Below are positions 397 through 33,698 of a stretch of DNA of 33,748 nucleotides, piece after piece. The first letter of the stretch is position 1. Each line of letters starts with the position of its first letter. The notes under the pieces are model-generated. The model did no database searches, had not been told where the DNA came from, and saw nothing but the letters and a program-made list of their open reading frames with translations. The stretch lies in UHGV virus genome UHGV-0125592. One strand, written 5' to 3'. A program made the position numbers and the translations under genes. The stretch is from a virus.

Positions 397-1128
397 TTAT
401 GCCACATCAGCGCCATGAATCAGATGGCGTAACGCATCAATCCCACTAGTGTTGTACCGGAACGTCTCAACTTGCTTACTGGAGTGAGCTGATTTATCCA
501 TCACAAAAATACCGTACTCGTCAGATTTGAGATTATTAGCATTTGCAACGCGCCCGATTTTCTGTGCTGACACACCAAGCATTTCACCTACTTCACTGGC
601 GCTATGATAGTGTTCTTCCACTTTTGGTAACGGTAGTAACTCAATACCAGCAGCATCGTTTACTGCTCGTGCCATAGCCGTTTGTTTGGCTATATCACCT
701 AACTTCGGCATAAACGATAACGCCAGGCTCATTGCCTCCACTTCCATCTTTATTGCGCGCGCTCTGCGATATTCCGGCAGGTGTGATGCTGATTTCTGCG
801 GAAGCATCTCTCCTGACTCAAGCTGACGCCAGCGTTTAGCCACTTTATGGCGTAGCGGAATGTTATAACCAGTCATCAGGGTCATGGTAAGGTCATGATC
901 AAGTTTAATTTCATCAATGACTACACGACCATTGTAAACCCGGCGCTTGATAGAAAACTCTTTAGAATCATAATCATCCAATTCTGGATAATGAAGATTT
1001 AGAGCTTCTAGCATTACCTCAATGTCACGAACTACGTGTGATGGATTCTTGCCAGTCAGCTTGGCAAGCTCGTGATGTGACATCATAGTGACAACAGATC
1101 GCGCATTTGCTACAGTTTGTTTAGTCAT
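397..1128 (-). CDS. Rha-family phage regulatory protein / antirepressor
   Basis: 243-aa ORF; N-terminus (MSHHELAKLTGKNPSHVVRDIEVMLEAL) matches the Rha-family pattern; AGGAA ribosome-binding site upstream of the ATG. Confidence 0.7.
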   Translation of the reverse strand: MTKQTVANARSVVTMMSHHELAKLTGKNPSHVVRDIEVMLEALNLHYPELDDYDSKEFSIKRRVYNGRVVIDEIKLDHDLTMTLMTGYNIPLRHKVAKRWRQLESGEMLPQKSASHLPEYRRARAIKMEVEAMSLALSFMPKLGDIAKQTAMARAVNDAAGIELLPLPKVEEHYHSASEVGEMLGVSAQKIGRVANANNLKSDEYGIFVMDKSAHSSKQVETFRYNTSGIDALRHLIHGADVA

Positions 1129-1161
1129 ATACGTTCCTACACGTTAATAGACTTCAATAGA

Positions 1162-1193
1162 CCGCCAGCAGCCACTGGCGGTTTTTCTTTTTG
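1162..1193 (+). terminator. Plus-strand intrinsic terminator between the two antirepressor genes (possible end of a Sar-like antisense RNA)
   Basis: CCGCCAG-CAGCCA-CTGGCGG hairpin followed by TTTTTCTTTTT on the plus strand, i.e. opposite to the flanking minus-strand genes. Confidence 0.45.
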
Positions 1194-1206
1194 CATTTAA
1201 GCAAGT

Positions 1207-1872
1207 TCAATAAATCCTCGGTCGTTCTCCCTGTTGAAGTTGTTGATCAGCATATTCCTTAATCATGTACATGAAGGCAGCTCCGTCATTAAAACGATCA
1301 TGAAGGCGACCAGCCAAAGGTGACTCTATTGCCCTCAAAGCCGGTTCTATCTGGTTAAACCATGCTTCACACATAACCTCGAAATAATCGAACATTGCGT
1401 TTGCATTGTGGGCGTGTATTTCTCTATTGCTGAGCATCTTCGATGCTGGAATATTTATAGACACCTCACGATCCAGAATATCTAACACCCAGCGTCGGAA
1501 TTCTTTAGCAACCGGAGTTCTCGCAAACATAGCGACCATGTGTGCACCACGTAGAGAAAAAACTCGAGTTTCTTGATGCCCACTAGGGGTGGTCAACTTG
1601 ACCACCCTCGACATTCTTTGCGTAAATTCATCAGAATGCCTTGAATAGATGCGCTGCACAGCTTTATCGTCCGCATACTGTAATGCATAACCAATCTGAT
1701 TAGCGGTCAGCCAAATGCCATCTTTATCAGAAATGCTCTGCAGAGATACGTCTTGGAAGTTAAGCTCAATTTTGGTTACACTATTCATGTCGATATCTCC
1801 TTTGCCGGATTTGTTCGATAAGAGGCCCAGAGTGTTAGCGCACTTCTGGGCTTCGCTACTTTTAACGACCAT
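1207..1872 (-). CDS. ant: Bro-N domain antirepressor (Ant-like)
   Basis: 221-aa ORF with Bro-N-like segment (WLTANQIGYALQY...VFSLRGAHMVAMFARTPVAKEFRRWVLDIL); start overlaps the stop of the upstream arc-like gene; AAGAGG ribosome-binding site. Confidence 0.7.
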   Translation of the reverse strand: MVVKSSEAQKCANTLGLLSNKSGKGDIDMNSVTKIELNFQDVSLQSISDKDGIWLTANQIGYALQYADDKAVQRIYSRHSDEFTQRMSRVVKLTTPSGHQETRVFSLRGAHMVAMFARTPVAKEFRRWVLDILDREVSINIPASKMLSNREIHAHNANAMFDYFEVMCEAWFNQIEPALRAIESPLAGRLHDRFNDGAAFMYMIKEYADQQLQQGERPRIY

Positions 1873-20349: not shown

Positions 20350-21219
20350 GTGACCAATACTACTTCTTTTCAGATCTTCTATGATGCAGAAGACACTGAA
20401 TTGGCACAGCATAAAATTGATGCAAAAACACTTAGCATTTCCATAGGTTCTATGGCTGATTTAATTTCAGCCGCCGATAAACGGCTTAACGACGGTCAAC
20501 AAACTGTGAAGTTGATGGTGACAAACCCGGCCGAGGCTGGCTCTCTCGGCGTATCCTATACGATGATGGAACTTGTCCCACATGCAATCAATGTTGCGAA
20601 AGTGATCGGATTGACAGGGTTAGCCGGCGCAGCAATTGGTGCACCTGCATTATCGTTAATTCGACAGTTGGGAAGTAAGAAAGTCATTTCCATCACGAAA
20701 CGAGCAGGTACAAACCAATCCGTTCTTGAGCTCGAAGGTGAAGAGATTGTTTGTCATGATTCTGTAGCAAAGCTAGTGACTGATCCAGAAATTAGGAATG
20801 CTTTAGTGAACGTTGTGCGCGCACCTTTAGACGGGAAAGAAGGCGCAGTGTTCAAAGTTCTGAATGAAGACGGTATCGAAGTCGTCCGCCTGGAAGGTGA
20901 AGAAACTGAGGAAATAAAACCACTTCCCAGGGGCACTTTGCTGGAAAAAGAAGAATCAGTGGAAGAAGTAAACGTAAGATTCGTCCAAATAAACTTTGAA
21001 GGAACAAAAGGTTGGAGGATTGAGTACCTCGGAGAGGAACATGCAGTTTCGTTTGAGGATCAACTTTTTATACATCAAGTCCAAAATGGGATCGTTAGTT
21101 TCACCAAAGAAGATTTGTTTGTCGTTGACCTCAAAACAACAAAAACTTTCACTGCACGTAATGCTTCAACCAAGTATGCTATAACCAAAGTTAAGCGAAA
21201 ACGCCCTGCTGAGGCTTGA
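20350..21219 (+). CDS. Hypothetical membrane-anchored protein, first gene of a three-gene cargo operon
   Basis: 289-aa ORF (GTG start at 20350; first in-frame ATG at residue 35); central hydrophobic segment INVAKVIGLTGLAGAAIGAPALSLI, acidic C-terminal half; low GC; preceded by a 10-codon mini-ORF whose stop overlaps the GTG. Confidence 0.5.
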   Translation: MTNTTSFQIFYDAEDTELAQHKIDAKTLSISIGSMADLISAADKRLNDGQQTVKLMVTNPAEAGSLGVSYTMMELVPHAINVAKVIGLTGLAGAAIGAPALSLIRQLGSKKVISITKRAGTNQSVLELEGEEIVCHDSVAKLVTDPEIRNALVNVVRAPLDGKEGAVFKVLNEDGIEVVRLEGEETEEIKPLPRGTLLEKEESVEEVNVRFVQINFEGTKGWRIEYLGEEHAVSFEDQLFIHQVQNGIVSFTKEDLFVVDLKTTKTFTARNASTKYAITKVKRKRPAEA

Positions 21220-21275
21220 TTAACGTGGCATTAAACTTGCAGATAGCGCAACTGATCTTCTGGATAGGAGTGATT

Positions 21276-21485
21276 ATGATCATTCCTACCTTTAGTCGTT
21301 TCTGCTATTCGGCATCTGCTTTGCTATGGCGTCGATTGTTTCCTACCAGGACCTTTGAGTTCCGGTATCACGATGAAGATACTGGTACAACTAAAACACT
21401 CATAGTTAAGGTGCCAAGAAAAAACGGCAAAATGCTTACCAGCCTTATTGATGAGGCTATTTCGGAGAATTCAAAACCAAAATGA
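21276..21485 (+). CDS. Small hypothetical protein, second gene of the cargo operon
   Basis: ATG at 21276 with GGAG 8 nt upstream; 69 aa; an upstream TTG start would add a hydrophobic N-terminus; stop overlaps the next start (ATGA). Confidence 0.4.
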   Translation: MIIPTFSRFCYSASALLWRRLFPTRTFEFRYHDEDTGTTKTLIVKVPRKNGKMLTSLIDEAISENSKPK

Positions 21486-21904
21486 GTTCTCAAAGTAAAG
21501 GTTTAAGTACTGGAAAAGCGACACTTTCCACTGGTGGTTGGGGAGCAATACTCAGCGTTTTAGTTGGTGCAGTTCTTACAGACCCCAACAGCGTGTGGAG
21601 GACGGTTGCTTATGCCCTTGTGCCTGGTGTTGCTGCTGTCCTTACCTACGTGATGAATTGGTTCATTTCTAGGCATGGGTTTGAATCACCAGAAGATGCA
21701 GCTAAACGAGCGAAGTGTAAACGAGATTTAGCTGAGATCGAAAAACAGCTAAGCTCAGAGCATTTAACCCCTGAAATTGAAGCCAGGCTGATGCAGGCAA
21801 AGGCCAAGACAATTGAAATACTCGTTTCTATTGGCAGCGACTCTATCCTTGAAGCCTCATCACGTTCGAGCCAACTACCAGATACTGCCGGGCCTCAAGG
21901 CTAA
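21482..21904 (+). CDS. Two-TM membrane protein with C-terminal coiled coil, third gene of the cargo operon
   Basis: 140 aa; two hydrophobic helices (GGWGAILSVLVGAVL and VAYALVPGVAAVLTYVMNWFI) then a charged helical tail; translationally coupled to the preceding gene. Confidence 0.5.
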   Translation: MSSQSKGLSTGKATLSTGGWGAILSVLVGAVLTDPNSVWRTVAYALVPGVAAVLTYVMNWFISRHGFESPEDAAKRAKCKRDLAEIEKQLSSEHLTPEIEARLMQAKAKTIEILVSIGSDSILEASSRSSQLPDTAGPQG

Positions 21905-21926: not shown

Positions 21927-22295
21927 TCAATCATCCATGTCAAGTCGAATATCAAGCATAGCCAAACATCCGTCTATAAATCCTTCTGCCATCTGTATCT
22001 CGATGCGTATCAATTTCTCATCTTTTTTACGCGCTTTCGCAATCTTCCTCTTAGATATTCCGTATAGGTAGTGGGCAACAAGAAGTGAATGCTCATATGG
22101 TTTTCGGTTTTTCAATCGCGCCAGGCACCCTTCGATGATCAGCGCATCATCGTCAGTACAAGACGGTCGGGAGCTACCTATTTGCGGCAACAGCCCTTTA
22201 AATCCTGCAGCTATAGGAGAATAGTCCACGCCAGAACTATCACTGGCAGCCCACCCGCCCCATCTTTCGAGTAACATTTGAATATCACGCATCAC
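21927..22295 (-). CDS. Late-gene antiterminator Q (small Q family, QuuD-like)
   Basis: 122 aa; MMRDIQMLLERWGGWAA...IAAGFKGLLP...SRPSCTDDDALIIEGCLARL...AEGFIDGCLAMLDIRLDMDD matches the conserved pattern of the DLP12/phage-82-type small Q proteins. Confidence 0.75.
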   Translation of the reverse strand: MMRDIQMLLERWGGWAASDSSGVDYSPIAAGFKGLLPQIGSSRPSCTDDDALIIEGCLARLKNRKPYEHSLLVAHYLYGISKRKIAKARKKDEKLIRIEIQMAEGFIDGCLAMLDIRLDMDD

Positions 22296-22309: not shown

Positions 22310-23338
22310 TTAAGCTTTCGCAATTACGCCGATCGCCAGCGCCCGATCCATAAAACGCAGTAGCAGCTCAAGCTGCGTACCATGCTTCTGCTCGAATGCT
22401 GGTACATCGGCGTGTAACTCGTCGTGGCACTCTCTGCACAGAGGGATCACGAAGAGGTCATGGGCTTTTGTTGCTGTACCACCCATACCGTGCCCTACGA
22501 TATGGTGCGGATCATCTGCTGGCCGTCGGCAACACTCACAGGGTTGTGTTTTTACCCAGCGGGTGTAAGTCTCATTTATCCAGCGGCGTCGCTTTGGCCT
22601 GAGCATGAAAGATTCTGGAGATTCCGGATCAACAGAGAGCGTGAGGATCTTCTTCGCCTTCTCCTGCACGAGGCTGGTTGCAGACGCTAAAGGCACAATG
22701 TCGCTTTCCCTCATGACAGAGCGGATGTTCTCATCCGGAAGGCGCAGCCCTTTGTGAGCAACGCTTTCCGGAATAACATCAGCCAGGTCGTTTCTGACCA
22801 TCCACCAGCACAGTTCCGGAAGCGTCAGGATATGCGACTCGGGAAAACCAGAATCACGCCGAATGACTTCCAGAATCCAGGATACCAGGTTTCCTGCCGC
22901 TATACCTGCAAGCTGTTCGGTATGCTGCCCCGACAAAGTGTGATCGCAATGCCAGCACAGGCGAATGCTTCCTGGTGGGTGCCGCATTGTTGTGAAGTTC
23001 TTGTCGTGCCACGTTGAATGTGGCCACTGGCATTCAAACCGATTACTCAGCCATTGCTCAAGGGAAGGAAGCCCGCCGGCACGCTGAATAATCCTCTCAT
23101 TCTCGAAGACCTGACGCATTACCGGATCATCAGCCAGCGGCTGAATGGCTGCCGGAACAGCCCCGGTACTGAATGACGCCATTTCTTCTGGTTCAGGCTC
23201 GAGCAGAACGCGACCACGCATGAAGAGGTGCATCAGCTCCGCACCAGGACGGAACAGCACAATCCCCATACGATGGGCGATCTCGGGGGTAAGCAGAGCT
23301 TTCACGCGACCTGCCCCCTGGCAATGTGTTCTGCCCAC
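22310..23338 (-). CDS. DUF968-like protein (YdfU-like) with C-terminal HNH-like Cys/His cluster
   Basis: 342-aa ORF; C-terminus CECCRRPADDPHHIVGHGMGG...CRECHDELH; start uncertain (internal Met codons at 23269 and 23230 possible). Confidence 0.55.
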   Translation of the reverse strand: MGRTHCQGAGRVKALLTPEIAHRMGIVLFRPGAELMHLFMRGRVLLEPEPEEMASFSTGAVPAAIQPLADDPVMRQVFENERIIQRAGGLPSLEQWLSNRFECQWPHSTWHDKNFTTMRHPPGSIRLCWHCDHTLSGQHTEQLAGIAAGNLVSWILEVIRRDSGFPESHILTLPELCWWMVRNDLADVIPESVAHKGLRLPDENIRSVMRESDIVPLASATSLVQEKAKKILTLSVDPESPESFMLRPKRRRWINETYTRWVKTQPCECCRRPADDPHHIVGHGMGGTATKAHDLFVIPLCRECHDELHADVPAFEQKHGTQLELLLRFMDRALAIGVIAKA

Positions 23339-23997
23339 AGTCCACCAATCCAGCGCACGCCTTTCGGCGTGAAGCGTGCCTGGCTGAATGCATGGTTTGA
23401 GGTTACGGATGTGCCGGTTTTCACTTCAAAACGGCCCGCATCAATATGCTGATGCCGTGGGGTCATCGTTCCGCCAAGGCGATACATGATGTCCTTCTCA
23501 AGGAGGAATAGCCGCAGATCAGGCTCTTTGGCCTTAAGCAGTTTTGCCACCTGGCGGAATGACATTGACCCACTGGCTGTACAGTACCGATCAACAAACT
23601 CTACCTTCGGCGCCGCGGCAGCCAGTTCGTTAGTCAACTGCTGTTTTTGTTCTGCAAGGTCAGCTGCAAGACGTAGGGCTTCAGAGAATGATTGAGGAAT
23701 CGTCTGCTGCTGTGCCTGCTCAAGCTCCTGCCAGCGATCAACCAGACGCGCGGTAAACTCCGGCGACAGCTGCGCGACAACGATATAACTGTCCCGCTTC
23801 CCTATCAGATAAACCGATACCGACTGATTGAGATGATTTCTAACTTCCCCCATTGGGGGGAGTTCAATAACACCGCGCTCTGCCAGGCGCTCAATGGACC
23901 GTTTAACATGGTCATGTCTTGATTCCACCAGCTCAGCAATATCGCTGCTGGACATGGTTAACGCTGTTGTTGCTAACTGGCTCATACTTTTCTCCAT
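23302..23997 (-). CDS. Antirepressor-like protein (Rha-type N-terminus plus KilA-C-like C-terminus)
   Basis: N-terminus MSSSDIAELVESRHDHVKRSIERLAERGVI (Rha-like HTH); C-terminus VEFVDRYCTASGSMSFRQVAKLLKAKEPDLRLFLLEKDIMYRLGG (KilA-C-like); start ambiguous among several Met codons. Confidence 0.6.
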   Translation of the reverse strand: MEKSMSQLATTALTMSSSDIAELVESRHDHVKRSIERLAERGVIELPPMGEVRNHLNQSVSVYLIGKRDSYIVVAQLSPEFTARLVDRWQELEQAQQQTIPQSFSEALRLAADLAEQKQQLTNELAAAAPKVEFVDRYCTASGSMSFRQVAKLLKAKEPDLRLFLLEKDIMYRLGGTMTPRHQHIDAGRFEVKTGTSVTSNHAFSQARFTPKGVRWIGGLWAEHIARGQVA

Positions 23998-23998
23998 A

Positions 23999-24385
23999 TC
24001 AGGCGGCTGCACCCGCCGGTTCATATCTGCTGATTGTTATCTCTACCCGACCTTTCGGCACAACGGGTCCCCATTCCACCAGCATGCGCTTAATCTGGCT
24101 GTCGTCTTCCCAGACACCCGCATGCGTCAGCGCGTCAAACAGGGCTTTGTTGTAATTATCGATATCCCGGCGGCGCGCATCCGGCGGGTACAGAGTGATT
24201 TCTACCGCTGCCAGTTCAGTCGATGGCTTCGGGAGACGTCGTAATTGCTCAATGATCGCCACGCAGGCAGCGCTCTGGTATTTACGGCCATCAGCGCTAA
24301 TGAGGTGACGACCGGCCAGCGGCCCCTTGTTAGGGGCGCGCCAGTAGGTGTTCACGCTGGGTGGAAATGGGAGTATGAGCCTCAT
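23999..24385 (-). CDS. rusA: Holliday junction resolvase RusA
   Basis: 128 aa; LPFPPSVNTYWR...DARRRDIDNYNKALFDALTHAGVWEDDSQI matches the RusA catalytic core (E. coli RusA: LPWPPSNNRYYR...[30 protein letters not shown]). Confidence 0.9.
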   Translation of the reverse strand: MRLILPFPPSVNTYWRAPNKGPLAGRHLISADGRKYQSAACVAIIEQLRRLPKPSTELAAVEITLYPPDARRRDIDNYNKALFDALTHAGVWEDDSQIKRMLVEWGPVVPKGRVEITISRYEPAGAAA

Positions 24386-24499: not shown

Positions 24500-25393
24500 T
24501 CACGCATGAGTTACCCCCCGCATGCTGTCGACAAGACCTTGCGCGATTGTGATGATTTCGCTGGTGGCCGTTCGTTCCAGCCATAGTTGATTGATATTGG
24601 CTTTCAGCTTGTTCTGCTGTGGTTCCTCCAGCATGTCAGCCCCTTCCACCTGGTTAAACACAATACCCACCTCAAGTGGCCAGATGCGTGATTCAACTTC
24701 TGGCAATGACAGCGGCACAGCAGCGGGCATTTCACGTGGTTGCACTGCTGGTGGCTGAACCTTCGCGGCGACAAACGTGGCCAGAGCCATAGAAGCACGC
24801 CCTTTTGCCTCCAGTTCTGTGCGGTTGATGTAGCTGAACCGCTCACCACGCCATGACTTATCGAATACAGCTATGGCACCGGCAAAAAACGCGCTGGTGG
24901 GCTTCTGTTTTTCGTCAGCAGGTACAAACCACACAGGCAGATCGAACCCAATGCGCCCGCGAATGAATACAATGTGATCGGCATCTTCCGGCCACCACGT
25001 TTCACTCGGCGCGGCTTTTATCAGGAATACATAGCGACCGCCCTTCTCGCGCTGGGCTGCTGCGTAGTTCATGATGTGCGTCATGCCGGTGATCGCCTGC
25101 TTCTCGTGGTACTGCGAACGGCTATACGGTGGGTTGCCATAGCCAGCGCCACCCAGTTCAGCCAGACGTTCAGACCAGTCCTGCGTCAGCGCGTTATCTT
25201 CGGCGGTGTACCATGCCGGGCATTTCGCGTTGTCGTCGTCAGCAAACAAATCCAGAACTAATGGACCAAATAGCGCGTTAATCCCCCAAAAAAGCAGATC
25301 CGGTGTCCGCCACTGATCGCCAACTTCTTTCAATTCGTGGGCTGGTTGGCTACGCAGTGCCGACAGCGCTAGGCAATATTTATTTGTCATCAT
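24500..25393 (-). CDS. Phage Dam-type N6-adenine DNA methyltransferase
   Basis: NPPY catalytic motif (GYGNPPYSRS) in the N-terminal half of a 297-aa ORF; about 100-aa C-terminal extension of unknown role. Confidence 0.75.
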   Translation of the reverse strand: MMTNKYCLALSALRSQPAHELKEVGDQWRTPDLLFWGINALFGPLVLDLFADDDNAKCPAWYTAEDNALTQDWSERLAELGGAGYGNPPYSRSQYHEKQAITGMTHIMNYAAAQREKGGRYVFLIKAAPSETWWPEDADHIVFIRGRIGFDLPVWFVPADEKQKPTSAFFAGAIAVFDKSWRGERFSYINRTELEAKGRASMALATFVAAKVQPPAVQPREMPAAVPLSLPEVESRIWPLEVGIVFNQVEGADMLEEPQQNKLKANINQLWLERTATSEIITIAQGLVDSMRGVTHA

Positions 25394-26256
25394 GAACGGA
25401 ACCCCGAATTTTCTGGCAGTGAGTAATCAACACTCTGGAAGTTTGCGCGGCTGGCTGAGTTAGTCTCCCATTTGCCGTTAACTCGTTCAGGCCGCCCAGC
25501 ACTGGACCATTTGGTCGCGCTTTGCAGGTAACCAGGGAAGTTTTTTGGAATAAACAGAGTTGCCGGGCGGAGATATTGCGCCTGCTCGCTATCACGCCAA
25601 TCGGCATTTTTGTAATCCACTACCAGGCACAGGTCATCAACCGTAAATTGTTCCCGAAGACGGGCGCGAATATTCTCCAGCGACGTACTGCATACCTGGT
25701 AGCGTGAGCCAGTTGTCTGGTTCAGGTAAGACAAGACCTGTCTGGCCTGATCAGTAATCACAACCTCAGGGTCAGGTTGCGCAGCAACCGGACAAGAGGG
25801 TTTTGAAGTTACTTGTGGATCTTGTTTTGATTTTACTGACGGATCCCCGCCAGATTCTGACGGGTCAAAACCGCTGTTTTTGCCAGATTCCGATGGGTCA
25901 GTTTTTGAGGTGTCAAATTTTGATGCGTCAGATTTTGACGTGTCAGAATCTGACAGTTGAGAAAATGCGGCAGCCTGAAGTTTCGCCACATTCAGGCGGT
26001 ACACGTTCGATGCATTACGGTTACCATTACGGCGCTGTGTACGCGTGAGCCAGCCATCTTTTTCAAGCTTAGCGATTGCTGTTCTAATGGTGCTCGGACC
26101 CGCGCCAAGCTGGCGAGCAATAGTTTCAATGGACGGCCAGCACACACCTTCATCGCTGCTGAAATCAGCAAGGCGAGCCATGATCGCGACACTAGACAAC
26201 TTCATGCCCGACGCTGCGCAACCATCCCATACGTAGCCGGTTAATTTAGTGCTCAT
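25390..26256 (-). CDS. Replication initiator (lambda O-like) containing the origin iterons
   Basis: N-terminal HTH region, central repetitive Ser/Asp/Lys segment encoded by DNA iterons, conserved phage C-terminal domain; AGGGAG ribosome-binding site. Confidence 0.7.
   Translation of the reverse strand: MSTKLTGYVWDGCAASGMKLSSVAIMARLADFSSDEGVCWPSIETIARQLGAGPSTIRTAIAKLEKDGWLTRTQRRNGNRNASNVYRLNVAKLQAAAFSQLSDSDTSKSDASKFDTSKTDPSESGKNSGFDPSESGGDPSVKSKQDPQVTSKPSCPVAAQPDPEVVITDQARQVLSYLNQTTGSRYQVCSTSLENIRARLREQFTVDDLCLVVDYKNADWRDSEQAQYLRPATLFIPKNFPGYLQSATKWSSAGRPERVNGKWETNSASRANFQSVDYSLPENSGFRS
25825..25956. repeat. Replication origin iterons inside the O-like gene
   Basis: Five to six tandem, partly palindromic 13-bp units of the form TCAGATTYTGAYG (e.g. 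CAGATTCTGACGG, CAGATTCCGATGG, TCAAATTTTGATG, TCAGATTTTGACG, TCAGAATCTGACA). Confidence 0.6.
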
Positions 26257-26265
26257 GATCGTCCG

Positions 26266-26592
26266 TTATCTCCCTGAACTTTTGCCTGAAATGCTCAAGT
26301 GGGCTGAAGCATTCGTGTGGATAGCCATCTCGCAGGTAGATAACGCGCTGTGTTTCTGGCTCCCAGCGGATAACACGGACTGGCACTCCGCGGTAATCTT
26401 TGAACCTTCGGTTAAGTTCGCGCGCAGGCGTTTTGCCCTCCGATAGTAGACCCCCACAATTACGGCAGCCTGGCTGTGGTTACATGACACCCAGCGATTT
26501 GATACTTTGCATTCATACCGAAACAGCGGAAGACCAGGAACCGGGATCATTCGCAGTTGCGGTAAGTGAGGATTTACGATTAAATTGCTCAT
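26266..26592 (-). CDS. Hypothetical small protein between the CII-like and O-like genes (uncertain)
   Basis: Only long minus-strand frame in the gap; ATG at 26592 with GGAG upstream, 5 nt after the CII-like stop; odd composition, and a plus-strand ORF (26249-26446) overlaps it. Confidence 0.25.
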   Translation of the reverse strand: MSNLIVNPHLPQLRMIPVPGLPLFRYECKVSNRWVSCNHSQAAVIVGVYYRRAKRLRANLTEGSKITAECQSVLSAGSQKHSALSTCEMAIHTNASAHLSISGKSSGR

Positions 26593-26597
26593 GCGGA

Positions 26598-27149
26598 TTA
26601 TTTCTCCATACTCGAAGAGTTGTTCGCCAAGGCGCCCGGAGCTGCACACTCGCGGGCGTCACTCTTTTCAGCGACACAAAAAACTCGATAAAGAAGCGTT
26701 ACGTGCTCCTGGAACTTCGCGATAACCTGATAGCTGTTTTCCTCAATCTGAGCACGCTCATCTGCGTCAATTACCCCATCAGCCGTGGCTTTACGTACAA
26801 AATTAGAATGACGACCTATCCATTCGATTGATTCCATCAGCCGCTGGTTGATATCGGCATTATCCAGATCATCAACATCTGCCAGCGGTACAAATACGCC
26901 CTGAGAATGGCGCGCAACGGCATCAGCGATATGGGTTGAACCACCAGCACGTTGTAAAACCATTGCCCAGCCCAGCGGGAAGATCTGGTCGCCATCAATA
27001 CGAAGGCGGTTAAACAATGCGTTCTCTGTCACGCCCAACCATTCCGCCGCCTCGGCATAACCGCCATGTAGATCGGTGATCGTTTTTTTTATCGCCGCAA
27101 CCAGCCAGGCTGGCTGGCGTTCGACTTTCCAAATAGGTTCGTTACCCAC
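26598..27149 (-). CDS. CII-like phage regulatory protein (CP76/YdaT-type architecture)
   Basis: 183-aa ORF immediately downstream of the cro-like gene, the position of lambda cII/ydaT; family assignment is from sequence pattern only. Confidence 0.5.
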   Translation of the reverse strand: MGNEPIWKVERQPAWLVAAIKKTITDLHGGYAEAAEWLGVTENALFNRLRIDGDQIFPLGWAMVLQRAGGSTHIADAVARHSQGVFVPLADVDDLDNADINQRLMESIEWIGRHSNFVRKATADGVIDADERAQIEENSYQVIAKFQEHVTLLYRVFCVAEKSDARECAAPGALANNSSSMEK

Positions 27150-27171: not shown

Positions 27172-27375
27172 TTACTGGTTAGCAGATACGCCTGTAACCT
27201 TGTGATACAGGGATGCGTCATACTTAAGTTTCCCATTAGTAATTCTCTCTATTACGAAGGCTTGCTTCTCAGGGATGACTTTTCCCCAACGACATACGGC
27301 AGGGTGTGAGATATTCAAAGCAACAGCGGTTTTAGAGATACCGCCAAAATGCTTTACGACTTCGGACTTATACAT
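27172..27375 (-). CDS. cro: Cro-like HTH regulator (YdaS/Cro family)
   Basis: 67 aa with HTH (GGISKTAVALNISHPAVCRWGK); divergent from cI across the operator region; GGAGG ribosome-binding site. Confidence 0.7.
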   Translation of the reverse strand: MYKSEVVKHFGGISKTAVALNISHPAVCRWGKVIPEKQAFVIERITNGKLKYDASLYHKVTGVSANQ

Positions 27376-27467: not shown

Positions 27468-28127
27468 ATGAAAACAGAGATGAAAGACCGCATCAGATCC
27501 AGACGAATCCAGCTGGATATAACCCAACTAGCACTGGCTAAAAAGCTTGGTGTAAGCCGTGTATCGGTTACAAAATGGGAAAACGGCACGACTAAGCCTG
27601 ATGGTGAGAACCTTCACCAGTTGGCTCAGGCTCTATCAACAACACCAGAGTGGATACTCTATGGAAGCGGTGATGAGGTCATTGACGACACGCGCGTCGT
27701 GCCTTTTTTGAAACCCCCTGTAGCTGTACCGATCATTTCGGCAGTTCAAGCCGGTTTATGGACGGAAAGCTATGCCTGCTCAAGACTTACAGACGTGATT
27801 TCCTGGACTCAAACAACTGCAAATGTATCGGATGAAGCGTTTGGGTTAGTAGTCCGCGGGGAGTCGATGACTAACCCGCAAGGACTTCCATCTATACCTG
27901 AAGGTTCTATTGTTATAGTCGAGCCCCATTATGGGCAGCTTGATGATCTATATGGGAAAATAGTTGTTGCTATTTTGGATGGGACTTCAGAAGCAACGGT
28001 TAAAAAATTAGTTTGGGATAGCCCCTACTCATACCTAATGCCACTAAATCCGTTATTTAAGCCAATCCAAATTGATGGCAACTGTCGCATTGTCGGAAAA
28101 GTTGTACAAATCACTCAAAACATCTAA
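27468..28127 (+). CDS. cI: CI-type prophage repressor (HTH plus S24 LexA-like autopeptidase domain)
   Basis: N-terminal XRE-type HTH (LDITQLALAKKLGVSRVSVTKWENG), C-terminal S24 domain with Ser (GESM) and Lys (TVKKL) dyad; start codon abuts an operator, suggesting leaderless translation as for lambda cI. Confidence 0.85.
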   Translation: MKTEMKDRIRSRRIQLDITQLALAKKLGVSRVSVTKWENGTTKPDGENLHQLAQALSTTPEWILYGSGDEVIDDTRVVPFLKPPVAVPIISAVQAGLWTESYACSRLTDVISWTQTTANVSDEAFGLVVRGESMTNPQGLPSIPEGSIVIVEPHYGQLDDLYGKIVVAILDGTSEATVKKLVWDSPYSYLMPLNPLFKPIQIDGNCRIVGKVVQITQNI

Positions 28128-28475: not shown

Positions 28476-28847
28476 ATGAGTAATGACCGCATGACCGTAG
28501 TGCCAGATTTTCTTGGCGAACTGGATGCCGGCGTGTTCATGAACAAAATCGCGGCAGCACTTAATACCACCGCGCTTGGTGTTCTAAACAACGGCAACAA
28601 AGGAAAAGTAGTCCTCACCTTTGATTTTGAGCGCATGGGTAATTCCGTTGAAGAGAAGCGCGTCAAGATCAAGCACAAGCTGAACTACAGCACCCCAACA
28701 CCGCGTGGTAAAGCCTCCGAGGAGGACACAACCGAAACCCCGATGTGGGTCAACAAAGGCGGGAAGCTCACCATCCTGCAGGAAGATCAGGGTCAGCTGT
28801 TCGGGATCACTGGCGCGGTGGATGGAAAGCTTAAAGCGGCTCAGTGA
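28476..28847 (+). CDS. Hypothetical protein, first gene of the PL operon
   Basis: 123-aa ORF with GAGGG ribosome-binding site; not Arg-rich, so not N-like. Confidence 0.5.
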   Translation: MSNDRMTVVPDFLGELDAGVFMNKIAAALNTTALGVLNNGNKGKVVLTFDFERMGNSVEEKRVKIKHKLNYSTPTPRGKASEEDTTETPMWVNKGGKLTILQEDQGQLFGITGAVDGKLKAAQ

Positions 28848-28903
28848 TCCGCAACAACAAACTCACTGATACCACTTCGATCATCAGTTAATAAGGAATT
28901 TCT

Positions 28904-29731
28904 ATGTCTCAGTTAGACAGCGGTACATTTCAGCAGGTAAAAGACCTGGTCCTTTCAGGCTACCACCTGAATGATATTCATGGCCTGGCTTGCCCGACCG
29001 CATTGCTGCCAGATGGTACTAGCGTTGAAAGCCTTGAGCGCTTTTCTCTGGAGCGTTTCCGCTTCCGTGGTGCAATGACAACAACCAGTATTGACGACTT
29101 CGCACGTTATTCTAAAGGTTACGCCAGCGCCAGCGAGCCTGCCCGTTGCTTCATTGACGCTGACAACATGACCGCTCGTTCAGTGTTCAACATCGGCACC
29201 CTGGATAATCCCGGCCACGCCGATAACGTTGCTTCGATCACCCTGAAGAAAACCGCCCCGTTCCGCGCGTTACTGCAGATCGATGGTCAACGTCTGAAGC
29301 AAAAGCAAATCGCTGAATGGCTGGAAGACTGGAGTGATTACCTGCTGGCGTTTGACGCCGATGGTAATACGATGCAGATTTCCCAGGCTGCTCAGGCAGT
29401 GCGTCGTATCACCATTCAACAAGCAACCCAGCAGGACCATGAAACTGGTGATTTCGCTGGTAAAAAATCGCTGATGCAAAGCGTTGAAGCAAGCAGCAAA
29501 GACGTAATGCCCGTGGCGTTCGAGTTCAAATGTATGCCGTATGAAGGGCTGGGCGAACGCCGCTTTAGCTTGCGTAACAGCCTGCTGACCAGCGATGAAC
29601 CCTGCTTTGTTCTGCGCATCGTCCAACTGGAAGCACAGGAAGAAGCGATCGCCAACGAATTCCGCGATTTGCTGATCAGCAAGTTCGACGGTGAATCAGT
29701 GGAAACTTTCATCGGTAACTTTAAAGCGTAA
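28904..29731 (+). CDS. DUF2303-like protein (YfdQ-like)
   Basis: 275-aa ORF with AAGGAA ribosome-binding site; size and position match the yfdQ-type gene preceding an HD-domain gene in E. coli cryptic prophages. Confidence 0.5.
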   Translation: MSQLDSGTFQQVKDLVLSGYHLNDIHGLACPTALLPDGTSVESLERFSLERFRFRGAMTTTSIDDFARYSKGYASASEPARCFIDADNMTARSVFNIGTLDNPGHADNVASITLKKTAPFRALLQIDGQRLKQKQIAEWLEDWSDYLLAFDADGNTMQISQAAQAVRRITIQQATQQDHETGDFAGKKSLMQSVEASSKDVMPVAFEFKCMPYEGLGERRFSLRNSLLTSDEPCFVLRIVQLEAQEEAIANEFRDLLISKFDGESVETFIGNFKA

Positions 29732-29859
29732 TTGCTCTGCATTAAATCCCCGGCGCCGCGGGGATTTATTGAAGCGTAATTCCACTAATTATCGCCAACC
29801 GGCGAGGGATTCGTGCAACCAAAATCTGCGCGGTGCAGCGCGCCAATATGGAGAAAACC

Positions 29860-30399
29860 ATGAGCTACATTCAAACATTATCCGGTAAAAAATTTAACTA
29901 CCTGACCGCCACTATCGACGATATCGATGTTGAGGATATCGCGACTGCTCTTTCCAACATCTGTCGATTCGCTGGGCATCTTCCAGAGTTCTACAGCGTG
30001 GCCAAGCACTCTGTGCTTGTAAGCCAGATTGTTCCGCCAGAGTTCGCATTTGAAGCGCTGATGCACGACGCTGCGGAGGCATATTGCCAGGACATTCCTG
30101 CCCCGCTCAAAGCCCTGTTACCAGACTACCAACGCATGGAAACTTATGTTGATGGTCTTATCCGCTTTAAATTCGGTATCTCTCTTGAACAAGCTGCTGT
30201 CGTGAAATATGCCGATCTCACCATGTTAGCCACCGAGCGCCGTGATCTGGAAATCGATGACGGTTCGAAGTGGGAAATTCTCGAAGGTATTCCCTGCTCT
30301 GATCTCGTTCAGGTTATCCCTCTCCGTCCTGGTCAAGCCTATGGCCTGTTCATGAATCGCTTTAACGAACTGATGGATCTGCGCCAATGCGCCGCATGA
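29860..30399 (+). CDS. HD-domain phosphohydrolase (YfdR-like)
   Basis: HD motif (ALMHDAAEAY) with upstream His (AKHSVLVSQ); ATG at 29860 preceded by GGAGAAAACC; the longer ORF from 29833 is an alternative. Confidence 0.65.
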   Translation: MSYIQTLSGKKFNYLTATIDDIDVEDIATALSNICRFAGHLPEFYSVAKHSVLVSQIVPPEFAFEALMHDAAEAYCQDIPAPLKALLPDYQRMETYVDGLIRFKFGISLEQAAVVKYADLTMLATERRDLEIDDGSKWEILEGIPCSDLVQVIPLRPGQAYGLFMNRFNELMDLRQCAA

Positions 30400-30572
30400 A
30401 GGTAAAAGAGCTCGTAGCGGAGGCTTTTACCTCCGTTGCTGAATTACCACCAAAACATGCACCGCTTATGCGCGAAGTCGCCACCAGACTGGACGCTACG
30501 TTCGCAGCATTAAAAGAGTCTCTGGTGCAACTGGAACAGGAACGTAAAGGTAAACGCCATGACCGTATTTGA
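30387..30572 (+). CDS. Small hypothetical protein
   Basis: 61-aa ORF overlapping the end of the HD-domain gene and the start of the next gene. Confidence 0.35.
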   Translation: MRRMKVKELVAEAFTSVAELPPKHAPLMREVATRLDATFAALKESLVQLEQERKGKRHDRI

Positions 30573-30813
30573 ATATCTCCAGGCTCATCCGAATACCACC
30601 AGCGGTGAAATCGCCAAAGGTATGAACAAAAAGACACCCGCGGTCGCTGGCGCATTATCGCAACTCTATGGCACCGGCCGGATCGTGAAATCTGGTGTTC
30701 GCAAGGGAATTCCTACTTACCGTGTTAACGATATGCCGTTTGGGTGTAGTAACAGCCTAACCATGATGTTTAACCAGCTCTTGAACAGAGCCAGAGAAGG
30801 AGCAGCCCAATGA
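30559..30813 (+). CDS. Small winged-helix-like DNA-binding protein (hypothetical)
   Basis: 84 aa; HTH-like segment TSGEIAKGMNKKTPAVAGALSQLYGTGRIVKSG; overlaps neighbours. Confidence 0.4.
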   Translation: MTVFEYLQAHPNTTSGEIAKGMNKKTPAVAGALSQLYGTGRIVKSGVRKGIPTYRVNDMPFGCSNSLTMMFNQLLNRAREGAAQ

Positions 30814-31139
30814 CAGTACTCAATAAACACAGGGAATTGCGCAAAGAGCTTTCAAACCCCGCAATAGGCAGCAATCACCACCTGCGAAAACTGGCCCTGT
30901 CGTTGCTGGATGAGCTGGAAACCAAAGAAGAACAACGCGCCAATTGGTTTCAAATGGCGCAGAAGTTAGGCGAGGATCTGGATGCCGCAGAGAAGCGCAT
31001 AACTGACTATCACACAGTGCTTAACAATCTCGCCGCCGTCGCCCGTCGCTATCTGCCAGATTATGACGAGCATCCTGATATTCAGGCCGCTGACGACTTG
31101 TTAGAAAGCGCCGCTGGCATTGGCGTGAAGGGGGATTGA
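30810..31139 (+). CDS. Hypothetical protein
   Basis: 109-aa ORF, overlapping start/stop with neighbours in the PL operon. Confidence 0.4.
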   Translation: MTVLNKHRELRKELSNPAIGSNHHLRKLALSLLDELETKEEQRANWFQMAQKLGEDLDAAEKRITDYHTVLNNLAAVARRYLPDYDEHPDIQAADDLLESAAGIGVKGD

Positions 31140-31612
31140 TGGCAGAGCAAACAATTTTGGACCTGTGCTGCGGCTCCCGCATGTTCTGGTTCAACAAGCA
31201 GGACACCCGCGCCGTGTTCACTGATATCCGCGCCGAAGAGCATGAGCTGTGCGACGGTCGCCGCCTGGTTATCAGTCCCGACCTGATTGCCGATTTTCGT
31301 TCACTGCCGTTCTCTGACTCTTCTTTTCCGGTTGTGGTGTTTGACCCGCCGCACCTCGAGCGCGTGGGCCAGTCTGCCTGGATGGGTAAAAAATACGGGC
31401 GATTGAACAAAAAAACGTGGCGTTCTGATTTGCGAACAGGATTCAAAGAGGCTTTCCGTGTACTGCGGCCACACGGCGTTCTCATATTCAAATGGAACGA
31501 GACGCAGATCCCGGTTAGCCAGATTTTGGCGCTTACAGATGTAAAACCTGCAATTGGTCAACGTACCGGGAAGAACGACAAAACTCACTGGATTATTTTT
31601 GTGAAGGACTAA
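31136..31612 (+). CDS. Small SAM-dependent DNA methyltransferase (DPPH motif)
   Basis: Motif I-like ILDLCCGS and motif IV VVVFDPPH (amino-methyltransferase type) in a 158-aa protein. Confidence 0.65.
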   Translation: MMAEQTILDLCCGSRMFWFNKQDTRAVFTDIRAEEHELCDGRRLVISPDLIADFRSLPFSDSSFPVVVFDPPHLERVGQSAWMGKKYGRLNKKTWRSDLRTGFKEAFRVLRPHGVLIFKWNETQIPVSQILALTDVKPAIGQRTGKNDKTHWIIFVKD

Positions 31613-31615
31613 CTC

Positions 31616-32050
31616 ATGACAACTAATAACCACCCGGCGCACGGCCCTGTATCACTCGATCGCCTGCACCAGATACGCGAACACCTGCAGCATGATACCC
31701 AGTACTCAAACGGAGGGAACAGAGCTTACATTCTCGCGGATATGTTGAAGGTGGTAGATGAGGTTTTGGCAAGTAGGACCGCCGAGCCAGTGGCAGATGT
31801 CGTTGCCTGGCGCAAAGAAGGTGAAGAAAGAACCTGTGATATACGCTGGCGCCGTTTTGATGTTCAACCTGGCCCCCTTTACGGTGTCCCACCTTCATCG
31901 CGTTTACTCTTAGATGAATTACGTAGGCAGATCGGATCCCTGCTAAATTCTGACGGTTATCGCGGAGCTGATTTCGACTTGCTCGATTACCTGAAAGCTC
32001 GGGACAGCATAGTAGATCTCTTCCATTCATCTAGCTCCTGTAACAGCTAA
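31616..32050 (+). CDS. Hypothetical protein
   Basis: 144-aa ORF between the methyltransferase and excisionase genes. Confidence 0.4.
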   Translation: MTTNNHPAHGPVSLDRLHQIREHLQHDTQYSNGGNRAYILADMLKVVDEVLASRTAEPVADVVAWRKEGEERTCDIRWRRFDVQPGPLYGVPPSSRLLLDELRRQIGSLLNSDGYRGADFDLLDYLKARDSIVDLFHSSSSCNS

Positions 32051-32089
32051 TAATTACCCCGGGTGCAGCCGGGTAATGGATAAATAACC

Positions 32090-32326
32090 ATGAGCAATAT
32101 TTTCCAGTTAGCCCCCAACGAGTGGGTTTGTGAAAGCGTTCTTATCGCGGTTACCGGCCTCAAACCCGGAACCATCCTACGGGCAAGAAAAGAGTGCTGG
32201 ATGGTTGGGAGGGAATATATCCACGTCTCACCAGACGGGAATCCAAAACCGTCCAGTGAGTGCATGTATAACAGAAAGGCTGTAGATGCCTGGGTCGCTT
32301 CAATGAAAAGCAAGCAGCCAGGGTGA
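32090..32326 (+). CDS. xis: Excisionase-like protein
   Basis: 78-aa protein immediately upstream of the integrase; winged-helix-like N-terminus (WVCESVLIAVTGLKPGTILRARKECWMVGREY). Confidence 0.6.
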   Translation: MSNIFQLAPNEWVCESVLIAVTGLKPGTILRARKECWMVGREYIHVSPDGNPKPSSECMYNRKAVDAWVASMKSKQPG

Positions 32327-32384
32327 TTTGATGCCATGAAAAAGGTAAGCTCGTATCGCTCTTGGGCGTCTGGAGGTAACACCA

Positions 32385-33698
32385 ATGGATAAAGTCACAT
32401 ATCCAACAGGCGTCGAAAACCACGGTGGCACATTACGCATCTGGTTTAATTTTAAAGGTAAGCGTGTCAGGGAAAGTCTCGGTGTCCCTGACACCTCTAA
32501 GAACAGGAAGATAGCCGGGGAACTGCGGACATCAGTATGTTTTGCCATCCGCACAGGAACCTTTGATTATGCAACCCAGTTTCCTGACTCCCCTAACCTC
32601 AAGGCTTTTGGTGTAAGTAAAAAAGACATTACAGTAAAAGAACTTGAAGAAAAGTGGCTGGATCTGAAACGGATGGAAATCTGCGCGAACGCATTCAATC
32701 GCTATGAGTCTGTCGCAAGGAATATGGTACCGAGGATCGGAGGTAATCGCCTGGTGTCAGCAGTAACCAAAGAGGAATTGCTGTATCTCAGGAAAGATTT
32801 GCTAACTGGTTACCAGAATCCGACGAAAAACAAATCCCCGGCAAAAGGGCGAAGCGTTGTTACTGTGAACTATTACATGACGACAATGGCCGGAATGTTT
32901 CAGTTTGCTGCGGATCACGGTTACTTAGAGGTGAACCCATTCGAGGGAATTAAGCCTCTGAAAAAAGCCAGGGCAGAACCAGATCCTCTTTCTCGTGATG
33001 AATTTATTCGCCTGATAGATGCATGCCGGCATCAGCAGACTAAAAACCTGTGGTCATTAGCAGTGTACACAGGAATGCGTCACGGGGAACTGGTCTCCCT
33101 GGCCTGGGAAGATATCGATCTGAAGGCGGGAACAATTACCGTCAGGCGTAATTATACGAAACTTGGTGAGTTCACTCTACCGAAAACCGAGGCAAGCACA
33201 GATCGAGTGGTGCATCTTATCCAGCCCGCAATCAGTATCCTGAAAAATCAGGCTGAAATGACAAGGCTGGGCAGGCAACATCGCATTGAAGTTCAGTTAC
33301 GTGAGTATGGCCGTTCGGTGAACCATGAGTGTACATTCGTCTTTAACCCGCATGTGGTCAGACGCAGTAAGCAGGTCGGATTTATCTACCGGGTCGATTC
33401 AGTAGGCGACTCCTGGGAAGCGGCACTAAAGCGCGCGGGGATCAGACATAGAAAGGCGTACCAGTCACGACATACCTATGCGTGCTGGTCATTATCTGCT
33501 GGTGCAAACCCGAGTTTTATTGCCAGTCAGATGGGGCATGCGAGCGCGCAGATGGTGTTCAATGTTTACGGTGCATGGATGGCTGACAGCAGCGCAGAGC
33601 AGATCGCAATGCTCAATCAGAAGCTGGCAGATTTTGCCCCATTGATGCCCCATAGCCACGAGAGCAGTACGGGAGGATTATTAAAATCAGTAAGTTAA
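32385..33698 (+). CDS. int: Tyrosine recombinase / phage integrase
   Basis: 437 aa; N-terminal arm-binding region; catalytic core residues R (TGMRHGEL), H-x-x-R (SRHTYAC) and Tyr (MVFNVYGAWM); GGAGG ribosome-binding site. Confidence 0.85.
   Translation: MDKVTYPTGVENHGGTLRIWFNFKGKRVRESLGVPDTSKNRKIAGELRTSVCFAIRTGTFDYATQFPDSPNLKAFGVSKKDITVKELEEKWLDLKRMEICANAFNRYESVARNMVPRIGGNRLVSAVTKEELLYLRKDLLTGYQNPTKNKSPAKGRSVVTVNYYMTTMAGMFQFAADHGYLEVNPFEGIKPLKKARAEPDPLSRDEFIRLIDACRHQQTKNLWSLAVYTGMRHGELVSLAWEDIDLKAGTITVRRNYTKLGEFTLPKTEASTDRVVHLIQPAISILKNQAEMTRLGRQHRIEVQLREYGRSVNHECTFVFNPHVVRRSKQVGFIYRVDSVGDSWEAALKRAGIRHRKAYQSRHTYACWSLSAGANPSFIASQMGHASAQMVFNVYGAWMADSSAEQIAMLNQKLADFAPLMPHSHESSTGGLLKSVS

Follow-up and report, generated by a model that had tools for sequence, protein, structure and literature searches.

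The origin of phage lambda lies within the gene of its initiator O, a two-domain protein; four iterons with internal dyad symmetry, spaced at 20–24 bp, occupy the linker-coding middle of the gene and are followed by an A/T-rich stretch, all of it inside the pR operon, and the gene encoding P (PF06992) is located directly downstream of O. The Bacillus phage SPP1, whose origin oriL lies within the gene of its organizer G38P, encodes both its own loader (G39P) and its own helicase (G40P). The iteron plasmids pSC101, R6K, and F combine a single initiator (RepA, pi, and RepE, respectively) with iterons and employ DnaB and DnaC of the host; their origins normally carry DnaA boxes and require DnaA. 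The replication module described here, which consists of the genes rep and dam (positions 24500–26256, minus strand), is part of the virus genome UHGV-0125592, a stretch of 33,748 nucleotides (nt) that was analyzed as a whole and is hereafter called the window. It shares with lambda the architecture of initiator and origin outlined above, but its six iterons follow a 15-bp period, and the position of P is occupied by the gene of a Dam methyltransferase. With SPP1 it has in common the Phg_2220_C domain at the C terminus of the initiator, but it lacks both loader and helicase; with the plasmids it shares the combination of a single initiator with iterons and, presumably, the reliance on helicase loading by the host, although the proteins are unrelated and the window contains no consensus DnaA box.

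The comparative evidence points to a module that probably operates with a single phage protein: Rep would bind the iterons in its own gene, open the adjacent stretch of DNA, and recruit the DnaB–DnaC complex of the host, with Dam in an accessory role. The module itself is one more ordinary example of a replication module that is very widespread in enterobacterial prophages and has already been sequenced and annotated. Open reading frames (ORFs) 41–45 of phage SfIV have been termed a "replication module", SfV has been grouped with modules of the SfII/SfIV type, and the absence of Dam from SfIV was noted by the authors (PMC3851460); for Stx phages, several "Eru" replication types other than that of lambda are listed as containing HTH_36 proteins (PMC8951638). 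No mechanistic or experimental work was found on how these phages load the helicase at their origin. The class of "lambdoid" phages that departs from the O–P paradigm of lambda in this way is large and includes the serotype-converting phages of Shigella.

The initiator Rep and its candidate origin

Rep (288 aa; 25390–26256, minus strand) consists of an N-terminal winged helix of the HTH_36 family (aa 23–70; PF13730, E = 8.5e-12), a linker rich in Ser, Asp, and Lys, a Phg_2220_C domain (aa 174–245; PF09524, E = 1.3e-25, 89.7 bits at a cutoff of 27; TIGR02220, 74.3 bits at a cutoff of 66.65), and a flexible tail. It matches PHROG families of replication initiation proteins with E values of 2.7e-81 to 1.5e-50, and an AlphaFold2 (AF2) model of aa 160–288 is helical throughout, with a predicted local distance difference test score (pLDDT) of 90.7. 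An earlier note on this DNA had called the initiator "O-like", which is appropriate for its layout and domain architecture but not for its descent: judged by its sequence, Rep does not belong to the lambda O family, as BLASTP yields no significant match between the two proteins (E = 0.62) and the Pfam scan returned no match to PF04492 (Phage_rep_O) at E ≤ 0.01. Its C-terminal domain, as far as homology tells, is of the type found in the "replisome organizer" G38P of SPP1. Phg_2220_C domains are represented by 8651 clusters among the 1.84 billion representative proteins scanned, typically within the C-terminal half of proteins that are 250–370 aa long. When the C-terminal domain of Rep was used as a tblastn query, 395 of 50,697 phage records matched, mostly phages of Staphylococcus, Streptococcus, and Bacillus whose proteins carry the annotation of a replication initiator or replisome organizer; gene 38 of SPP1 was among the matches (E = 6e-5).

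Homologs of Rep are annotated as "primosomal protein" and homologs of Dam as "phosphoadenosine phosphosulfate reductase" in RefSeq and other records (e.g., those of loci L002, L003, and L005). Both labels probably derive from PHROG families (phrog_33262 and phrog_11896) and look misleading.

The expectation that five to six 13-bp iterons occupy the middle of rep was borne out by a repeat search, which located six good copies, starting at positions 25849, 25882, 25897, 25912, 25927, and 25942 and thus spaced by 33 bp and then four times by 15 bp, and a weak seventh copy at 25985. The array (25849–25960) is composed of partly palindromic repeats of 13–19 nt of the type GTCAGAnTCTGAC. With up to two mismatches allowed, the 13-mer TCAGATTYTGAYG has 16 matches in the window, as opposed to 3.35 ± 1.7 expected, a number that was reached in none of 100 shuffled sequences; nine of the 16 fall within 25848–25955, counting both strands, given the partly palindromic nature of each site (e.g., GTCAGAATCTGAC). 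On the coding strand, the iterons encode a repeated SK(S/F/T)D(A/T/P) linker. They are located at nt ~297–408 of the 867-nt gene, between the parts coding for HTH_36 and Phg_2220_C, and occupy the same relative position as the four iterons of lambda (nt 349–435 of O), in agreement with the parallel to the lambda origin drawn in the earlier note. The four annotated lambda iterons were recovered by the same repeat search, which served as a positive control.

A comparison of 52 distinct segments related to this origin shows that the number of iterons differs by whole 15-bp units. The Reps of phages phiNP, LLS, and YeP1 share the N-terminal domain of the window and its TCAGA..TCTGA iterons with a 15-bp period, while Reps with other N-terminal domains, such as those of Klebsiella phage ST147-VIM1phi7.2 (ST147phi7.2), ST64B, mEp390, and Vibrio phage 1.038.O, bear other repeats at the equivalent site. 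Such a covariation is expected of an initiator and its binding sites, and we infer from it that the N-terminal winged helix of Rep binds the six iterons within its own gene.

The nucleoprotein complex of Rep and iterons would then open a candidate unwinding region (25800–25845), which is directly downstream of the array in the direction of transcription and combines a GC content of 0.42 with an A-rich coding strand (AT skew of −0.43 on the plus strand). The region includes two direct repeats of 22 nt at a distance of 24 bp, both ending in GGATC. The resulting pair of GATC sites (at 25818 and 25842; nt 412 and 436 of rep) is kept in all phages with this type of origin, whether they encode Dam or not, and might couple the working of the origin to adenine methylation. 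The consensus DnaA box (TTWTNCACA) does not occur anywhere in the 33.7-kb window, which makes a DnaA-assisted route less likely; a DnaA-dependent origin was therefore set aside.

Helicase loaders and the C-terminal tail of Rep

The earlier claim that the module lacks a loader of the P or DnaC type withstood closer scrutiny. Scans against Pfam and PHROG, in which the early region was represented by its ORFs of ~110 aa or more and the remainder of the window by its largest ORFs, yielded neither P, DnaC/IstB, or DnaB nor a primase or any other helicase. Every stop-to-stop segment of at least 30 aa in all six frames was searched, without filters, with custom hidden Markov models (HMMs) of six phage IstB/DnaC-like proteins and of two proteins of the lambda P family, and the best E values in the window were 4.2 and 1.3, respectively; a P or DnaC homolog hidden among the small ORFs was thus not found in segments of this size. 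Apart from that of the large terminase, the window contains no convincing Walker A motif.

The same holds for the relatives of the module. Eighty loci were retrieved from IMG/VR with Rep, and all of them share a gene order that starts with a small gene, continues with rep and its internal repeats, an optional PerC-like gene, and an optional methyltransferase gene, and leads via rusA to Q. This layout is also present in phages phiNP, SfII, SfIV, ST64B, Flotzy, LLS, YeP1, and mEp390, in Hafnia phage yong2, Pantoea phage AH07, Providencia phage PSTCR8lys, and Klebsiella phage ST147-VIM1phi7.2, and in prophages of Escherichia coli, including one in strain Nissle 1917; a DNA search with the 2.4-kb rep–dam region matched at least part of it in 2748 of 5426 complete E. 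coli genomes. None of the 12 named phages or 80 IMG/VR relatives has a loader gene beside rep, and the loader HMMs detected none in the loci of the 80 relatives. Since several of the carriers are isolated phages (mEp390, SfII, and SfIV; LLS is recorded on E. coli K12), the module evidently works without a loader of phage origin.

In SfII, SfIV, ST64B, mEp390, LLS, and phiNP, the order is that of the window from cI via cro, a cII-like gene, the small gene, rep with its iterons, the optional PerC-like and Dam genes, and rusA to Q, again without a loader, but the proteins differ. The Reps of phiNP, LLS, and mEp390 have a Phg_2220_C domain like that of the window (65%, 54%, and 59% identity, respectively), whereas those of SfII and SfIV combine the N-terminal domain and iterons of the window with a C-terminal domain of the lambda O type, and both Rep domains of ST64B are unlike those of the window. 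Dam is absent from SfIV and mEp390, short in SfII, and followed by a C5-methylase in phiNP.

The Reps of SfII (SfII_41; L002, 3542–4483) and SfIV (gp41; L086, 3999–4940) are chimeras, in which the homology to lambda O covers its residues 187–270 (E = 7e-26). Despite this C-terminal domain, neither phage has a P gene.

A different arrangement is found among vibriophages. The Reps of Vibrio phages 1.038.O, 230E39-1, vB_VpP_1, LP.2, and 1.082.O have the same C-terminal Phg_2220_C domain (annotated as such or as IPR011741), and in all five of these sampled phages, an AAA+ gene of the IstB_IS21 family begins no more than a few bases from the stop codon of rep (Rep/loader loci L089, 3842–4663; L091, 3311–4039; L092, 1068–1781; L093, 3306–4112; and L094, 3303–4109). 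The encoded proteins score above the Pfam thresholds throughout (E = 1e-11 to 8e-15) and belong to the DnaC/DnaI family. A scan of IMG/VR that started from a vibriophage Rep retrieved mostly matches to the N-terminal helix-turn-helix domain from viruses with unknown hosts, and only three further loci with a Phg_2220_C domain.

The difference parallels one between the hosts. E. coli loads DnaB with DnaC, whereas Vibrio cholerae loads it with DciA; DnaC/DnaI and DciA are reported to be mutually exclusive, and DnaC/I to stem from phages (PMC8216460, PMC5509034). The gene neighborhoods would be explained most simply if initiators of the organizer type needed a loader of the DnaC type, which the phages of DnaC-free hosts would bring along and which enterobacterial phages would borrow from the host.

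The Rep of the window ends in the tail DYSLPENSGFRS (25393–25428, minus strand), which conforms to the motif P-x(1-3)-G-F-R-[GS] and is presumably flexible, given its low pLDDT of 61–68. The motif is present at or near the C terminus in 11 of the 13 loader-less enterobacterial Reps that were sampled (e.g., ...DYSLPENSGFRS, ...DYSQIPAGFRG, and ...TKIPEGFRG; the loci include L002, L005, L086, L090, L095–L097, and L099), where it is attached to three unrelated C-terminal domains: Phg_2220_C (the window, phiNP, LLS, mEp390, and others), the lambda O type (SfII and SfIV), and the ST64B type. The vibriophage Reps, unlike that of the window, stop soon after the domain; together with one further IMG/VR Rep that has an adjacent loader gene, they lack the motif, so that it is missing from every loader-adjacent Rep in the sample. 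Several further classes of tails occur among 150 representatives of the family.

A mere Shine–Dalgarno or overlap constraint imposed by the next gene was considered as the cause of this conservation and rejected. The motif is encoded by varying synonymous codons (GGA, GGC, GGG, and GGT for Gly; both CGN and AGR for Arg), and it is retained at distances of 2–28 residues from the stop codon and in cases without an overlap with the next gene, which argues for a constraint at the level of the protein rather than a ribosome-binding site. Tentatively, and with less confidence than we place in the single-protein module as a whole, the tail might represent a portable docking peptide by which unrelated initiators capture the DnaB–DnaC complex or another primosomal protein of the host. 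If so, it would explain why this large group of enterobacterial lambdoid phages can do without a loader, whereas their relatives in Vibrio carry an IstB/DnaC-like gene. Tail motif and Vibrio contrast are the only parts of the analysis that go beyond routine annotation, and the motif is its sole new lead; the pattern of a loader gene beside this kind of initiator in vibriophages and a conserved tail in the loader-less modules offers a concrete and cheap experimental handle on helicase loading.

In the single-protein module, the C-terminal part of Rep, i.e., the Phg_2220_C domain and the tail, would bring in the host DnaB together with its loader DnaC, a task that would correspond to that of P in lambda and of G39P in SPP1. 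Several observations weigh against this explanation. The contrast between solo and loader-associated Reps coincides with that between Enterobacterales and Vibrio and is confounded with phylogeny, comprising about eight independent solo and six loader lineages. Two solo Reps (those of YeP1 and the Providencia phage) bear a different tail, and the Rep of Aeromonas phage 56 has neither tail nor loader. Small genes, such as that of the DUF4222 protein, may act as helpers. Moreover, the searchable literature yielded no experiment on this type of module, and the recruitment of DnaB–DnaC by Rep is what we infer from the comparison.

The Rep of Aeromonas phage 56 (gp24), whose HTH_36 and Phg_2220_C domains were confirmed by Pfam, is of the same overall kind as the vibriophage Reps. 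Its gene is followed by that of a DUF6475 protein (gp25; L088, 3826–4410), which places the phage outside a simple picture of two classes.

Dam and other candidates for helicase loading

The gene following rep is, as the earlier note had recognized, that of an N6-adenine methyltransferase with an NPPY motif and a C-terminal extension of ~100 residues. The start codon of dam (24500–25393, minus strand) overlaps the stop codon of rep (ATGA). The catalytic part (aa 1–199; 24797–25393, minus strand) matches PF05869 (aa 19–199; E = 2.8e-43, 148 bits at a cutoff of 28.1) and TIGR01712 (E = 4.8e-61, 205 bits at a cutoff of 97) and contains the motif at aa 87–90 (GNPPY at aa 86–90); from the characterized members of the family, we assume that it methylates adenine at N6 specifically in GATC. 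The extension (aa 200–297; 24500–24796, minus strand) consists of a Pro/Ala-rich linker and a terminal module of ~65 aa (SRIWPLEVG...NQLWLER...; 24503–24700, minus strand). It has no match in Pfam, NCBIfam, or the PDB and is matched only by the C-terminal parts of the PHROG methyltransferase families 111 and 16025. Among relatives, the extension is modular and sometimes contains a further insert of ~150 aa.

The earlier note had left open whether the helicase is recruited by host factors or by the extension of the methyltransferase. The former is favored by the loader-less layout of isolated phages; the latter, in which Dam would serve via its extension as an adaptor or loader and deliver DnaB to Rep, appears very improbable. 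It draws on the location of dam directly after rep with overlapping codons, an order kept in most of the 80 close relatives, and on the terminal module, which has no assigned function and is present in just 15 phage records, most of them with a loader-less module of this kind. The comparative data nevertheless largely refute it. Dam is missing from SfIV, mEp390, and the IMG/VR loci L074 and L076, which have the same type of Rep and origin, and is replaced by an unrelated classical Dam in L084 and in Klebsiella phage ST147-VIM1phi7.2. The Dam of SfII (217 aa) lacks the extension, that of L071 has a different one, and in L042 (6855–9107) the N-terminal part of Dam is fused directly to a C5-methylase that takes the place of the extension; in many relatives, a PerC-like gene separates rep from dam. 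In addition, a homolog of the terminal module forms a free-standing gene of 85 aa in Klebsiella phages 5 LV-2017 and ST13-OXA48phi12.4 (L101 and L102, 4444–4701). Phage 5 LV-2017 encodes a loader of the lambda P family (PF06992, E = 6.8e-61), and the record of ST13-OXA48phi12.4 annotates a DnaC-type replication protein. The module of 5 LV-2017 is located directly upstream of a C5-cytosine methylase gene, and a C5-methylase is also the neighbor of Dam with extension in phiNP and Flotzy, which suggests that the extension travels with genes of DNA modification rather than with loader-less origins. On this comparative evidence, Dam appears to be a dispensable, optional passenger and not a substitute loader; dam would be a translationally coupled accessory gene for DNA modification in a nin-like region, and its extension part of a modification cassette that has no role in replication.

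Nor is it likely that helicase loading proceeds via the restart machinery of the host. Rep might only open or mark the origin, and, instead of a direct contact between Rep and DnaB or DnaC, the PriA–PriB–DnaT primosome would load the helicase on an R-loop or D-loop that arises from early transcription or recombination, which would suit an origin inside a strongly transcribed early operon. The designation of these Reps as "primosomal protein" in some databases agrees with such a scheme, but the label has no traceable experimental basis here. One class of tails in the family (...YDDDTPL), which we take to resemble the tail of SSB, could bind partners of the PriA type, but the tail of the window belongs to a different class; and because this route also ends in DnaC-dependent loading of DnaB, it amounts to a variant of the single-protein module. 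We give even less credence to a new kind of loader or adaptor among the other small phage proteins, for which the DUF4222 protein or an early-left gene would be candidates. Known loaders can be small and mutually unrelated (e.g., lambda P and SPP1 G39P, whose truncated crystallized form has 67 residues), several early ORFs are unannotated, and four diverged enterobacterial modules, which differ in their iterons, have the DUF4222 gene immediately before rep. With 46–59 aa, however, the protein is very short, its place is taken by unrelated proteins of 108–112 aa in LLS, mEp390, and SfII, and no accessory gene is common to all loader-less modules sampled. Least credible is a replication-defective prophage in which a deletion removed the P or DnaC gene and brought dam next to rep. 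Many enterobacterial prophages are indeed decayed, the DUF4222 ORF of the window is shortened, and there is a gap of 115 bp after dam where relatives have more genes; but rep and the iterons are intact, and the same overlap between the rep stop codon and the next start codon is found, without any remnant of a loader, in isolated phages and all 80 IMG/VR relatives.

The early operons of the prophage

The module belongs to the early-right operon of a lambdoid prophage, which is encoded on the minus strand and has its closest relatives in Citrobacter and E. coli; the nearest Rep proteins are assigned by annotation to Citrobacter freundii, Salmonella, and E. coli. The operon, transcribed rightward in the lambda sense, starts with a cro-like repressor gene (27172–27375; PF14549, E = 3.4e-22), followed by genes for a cII/YmfL-like regulator (26598–27149; PF06892, E = 2.4e-9; PHROG 101, E = 4.2e-58) and the DUF4222 protein (26246–26386; PF13973, E = 8.9e-12), which overlaps the start of rep. 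In the window, the DUF4222 ORF comprises 46 aa from a GTG start, compared with 59 aa in most relatives; it is also located directly upstream of rep, usually with an overlap, in the phages of Klebsiella, Pantoea, and Providencia, which have different Reps. Downstream of dam, the operon continues with genes for the Holliday-junction resolvase RusA (23999–24385; PF05866, E = 4.3e-16), an Ant/Rha antirepressor (23302–24024), a DUF968/HNH protein (22310–23338), and Q (21927–22295), the last three of which are covered together by the Pfam matches PF03374, PF06147, and PF06530. Opposed to these minus-strand genes from cro to Q is the gene of a cI-like repressor with HTH_3 and S24 peptidase domains (27468–28127, plus strand; PF01381, E = 4.4e-16; PF00717, E = 3.8e-22).

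The early-left operon (28476–33698, plus strand) encodes YfdP- and YfdQ-family, HD-like, Ea22-like, and small SAM-methyltransferase-like proteins and an integrase. In its first part (28476–30399), the YfdP- and YfdQ-family genes are followed, at the position of YfdR, by an HD-like protein of 188 aa, whose only Pfam match is a weak one to YfbR-like proteins (E = 0.0048). YfdR of E. coli binds DnaA and inhibits the interaction of DnaA with DnaB (PMC4776307). If the 188-aa protein is a homolog of YfdR, it could release the host helicase for use by the phage.

The remainder of the window contains terminase, head, tail, and antirepressor genes. A block of three plus-strand genes beside Q (20350–21904) resembles a moron cassette; it has no Pfam match and one to a PHROG family of unknown function. 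At its left end, the window has two genes of the antirepressor type (397–1872, minus strand) that adjoin those for the minor tail.

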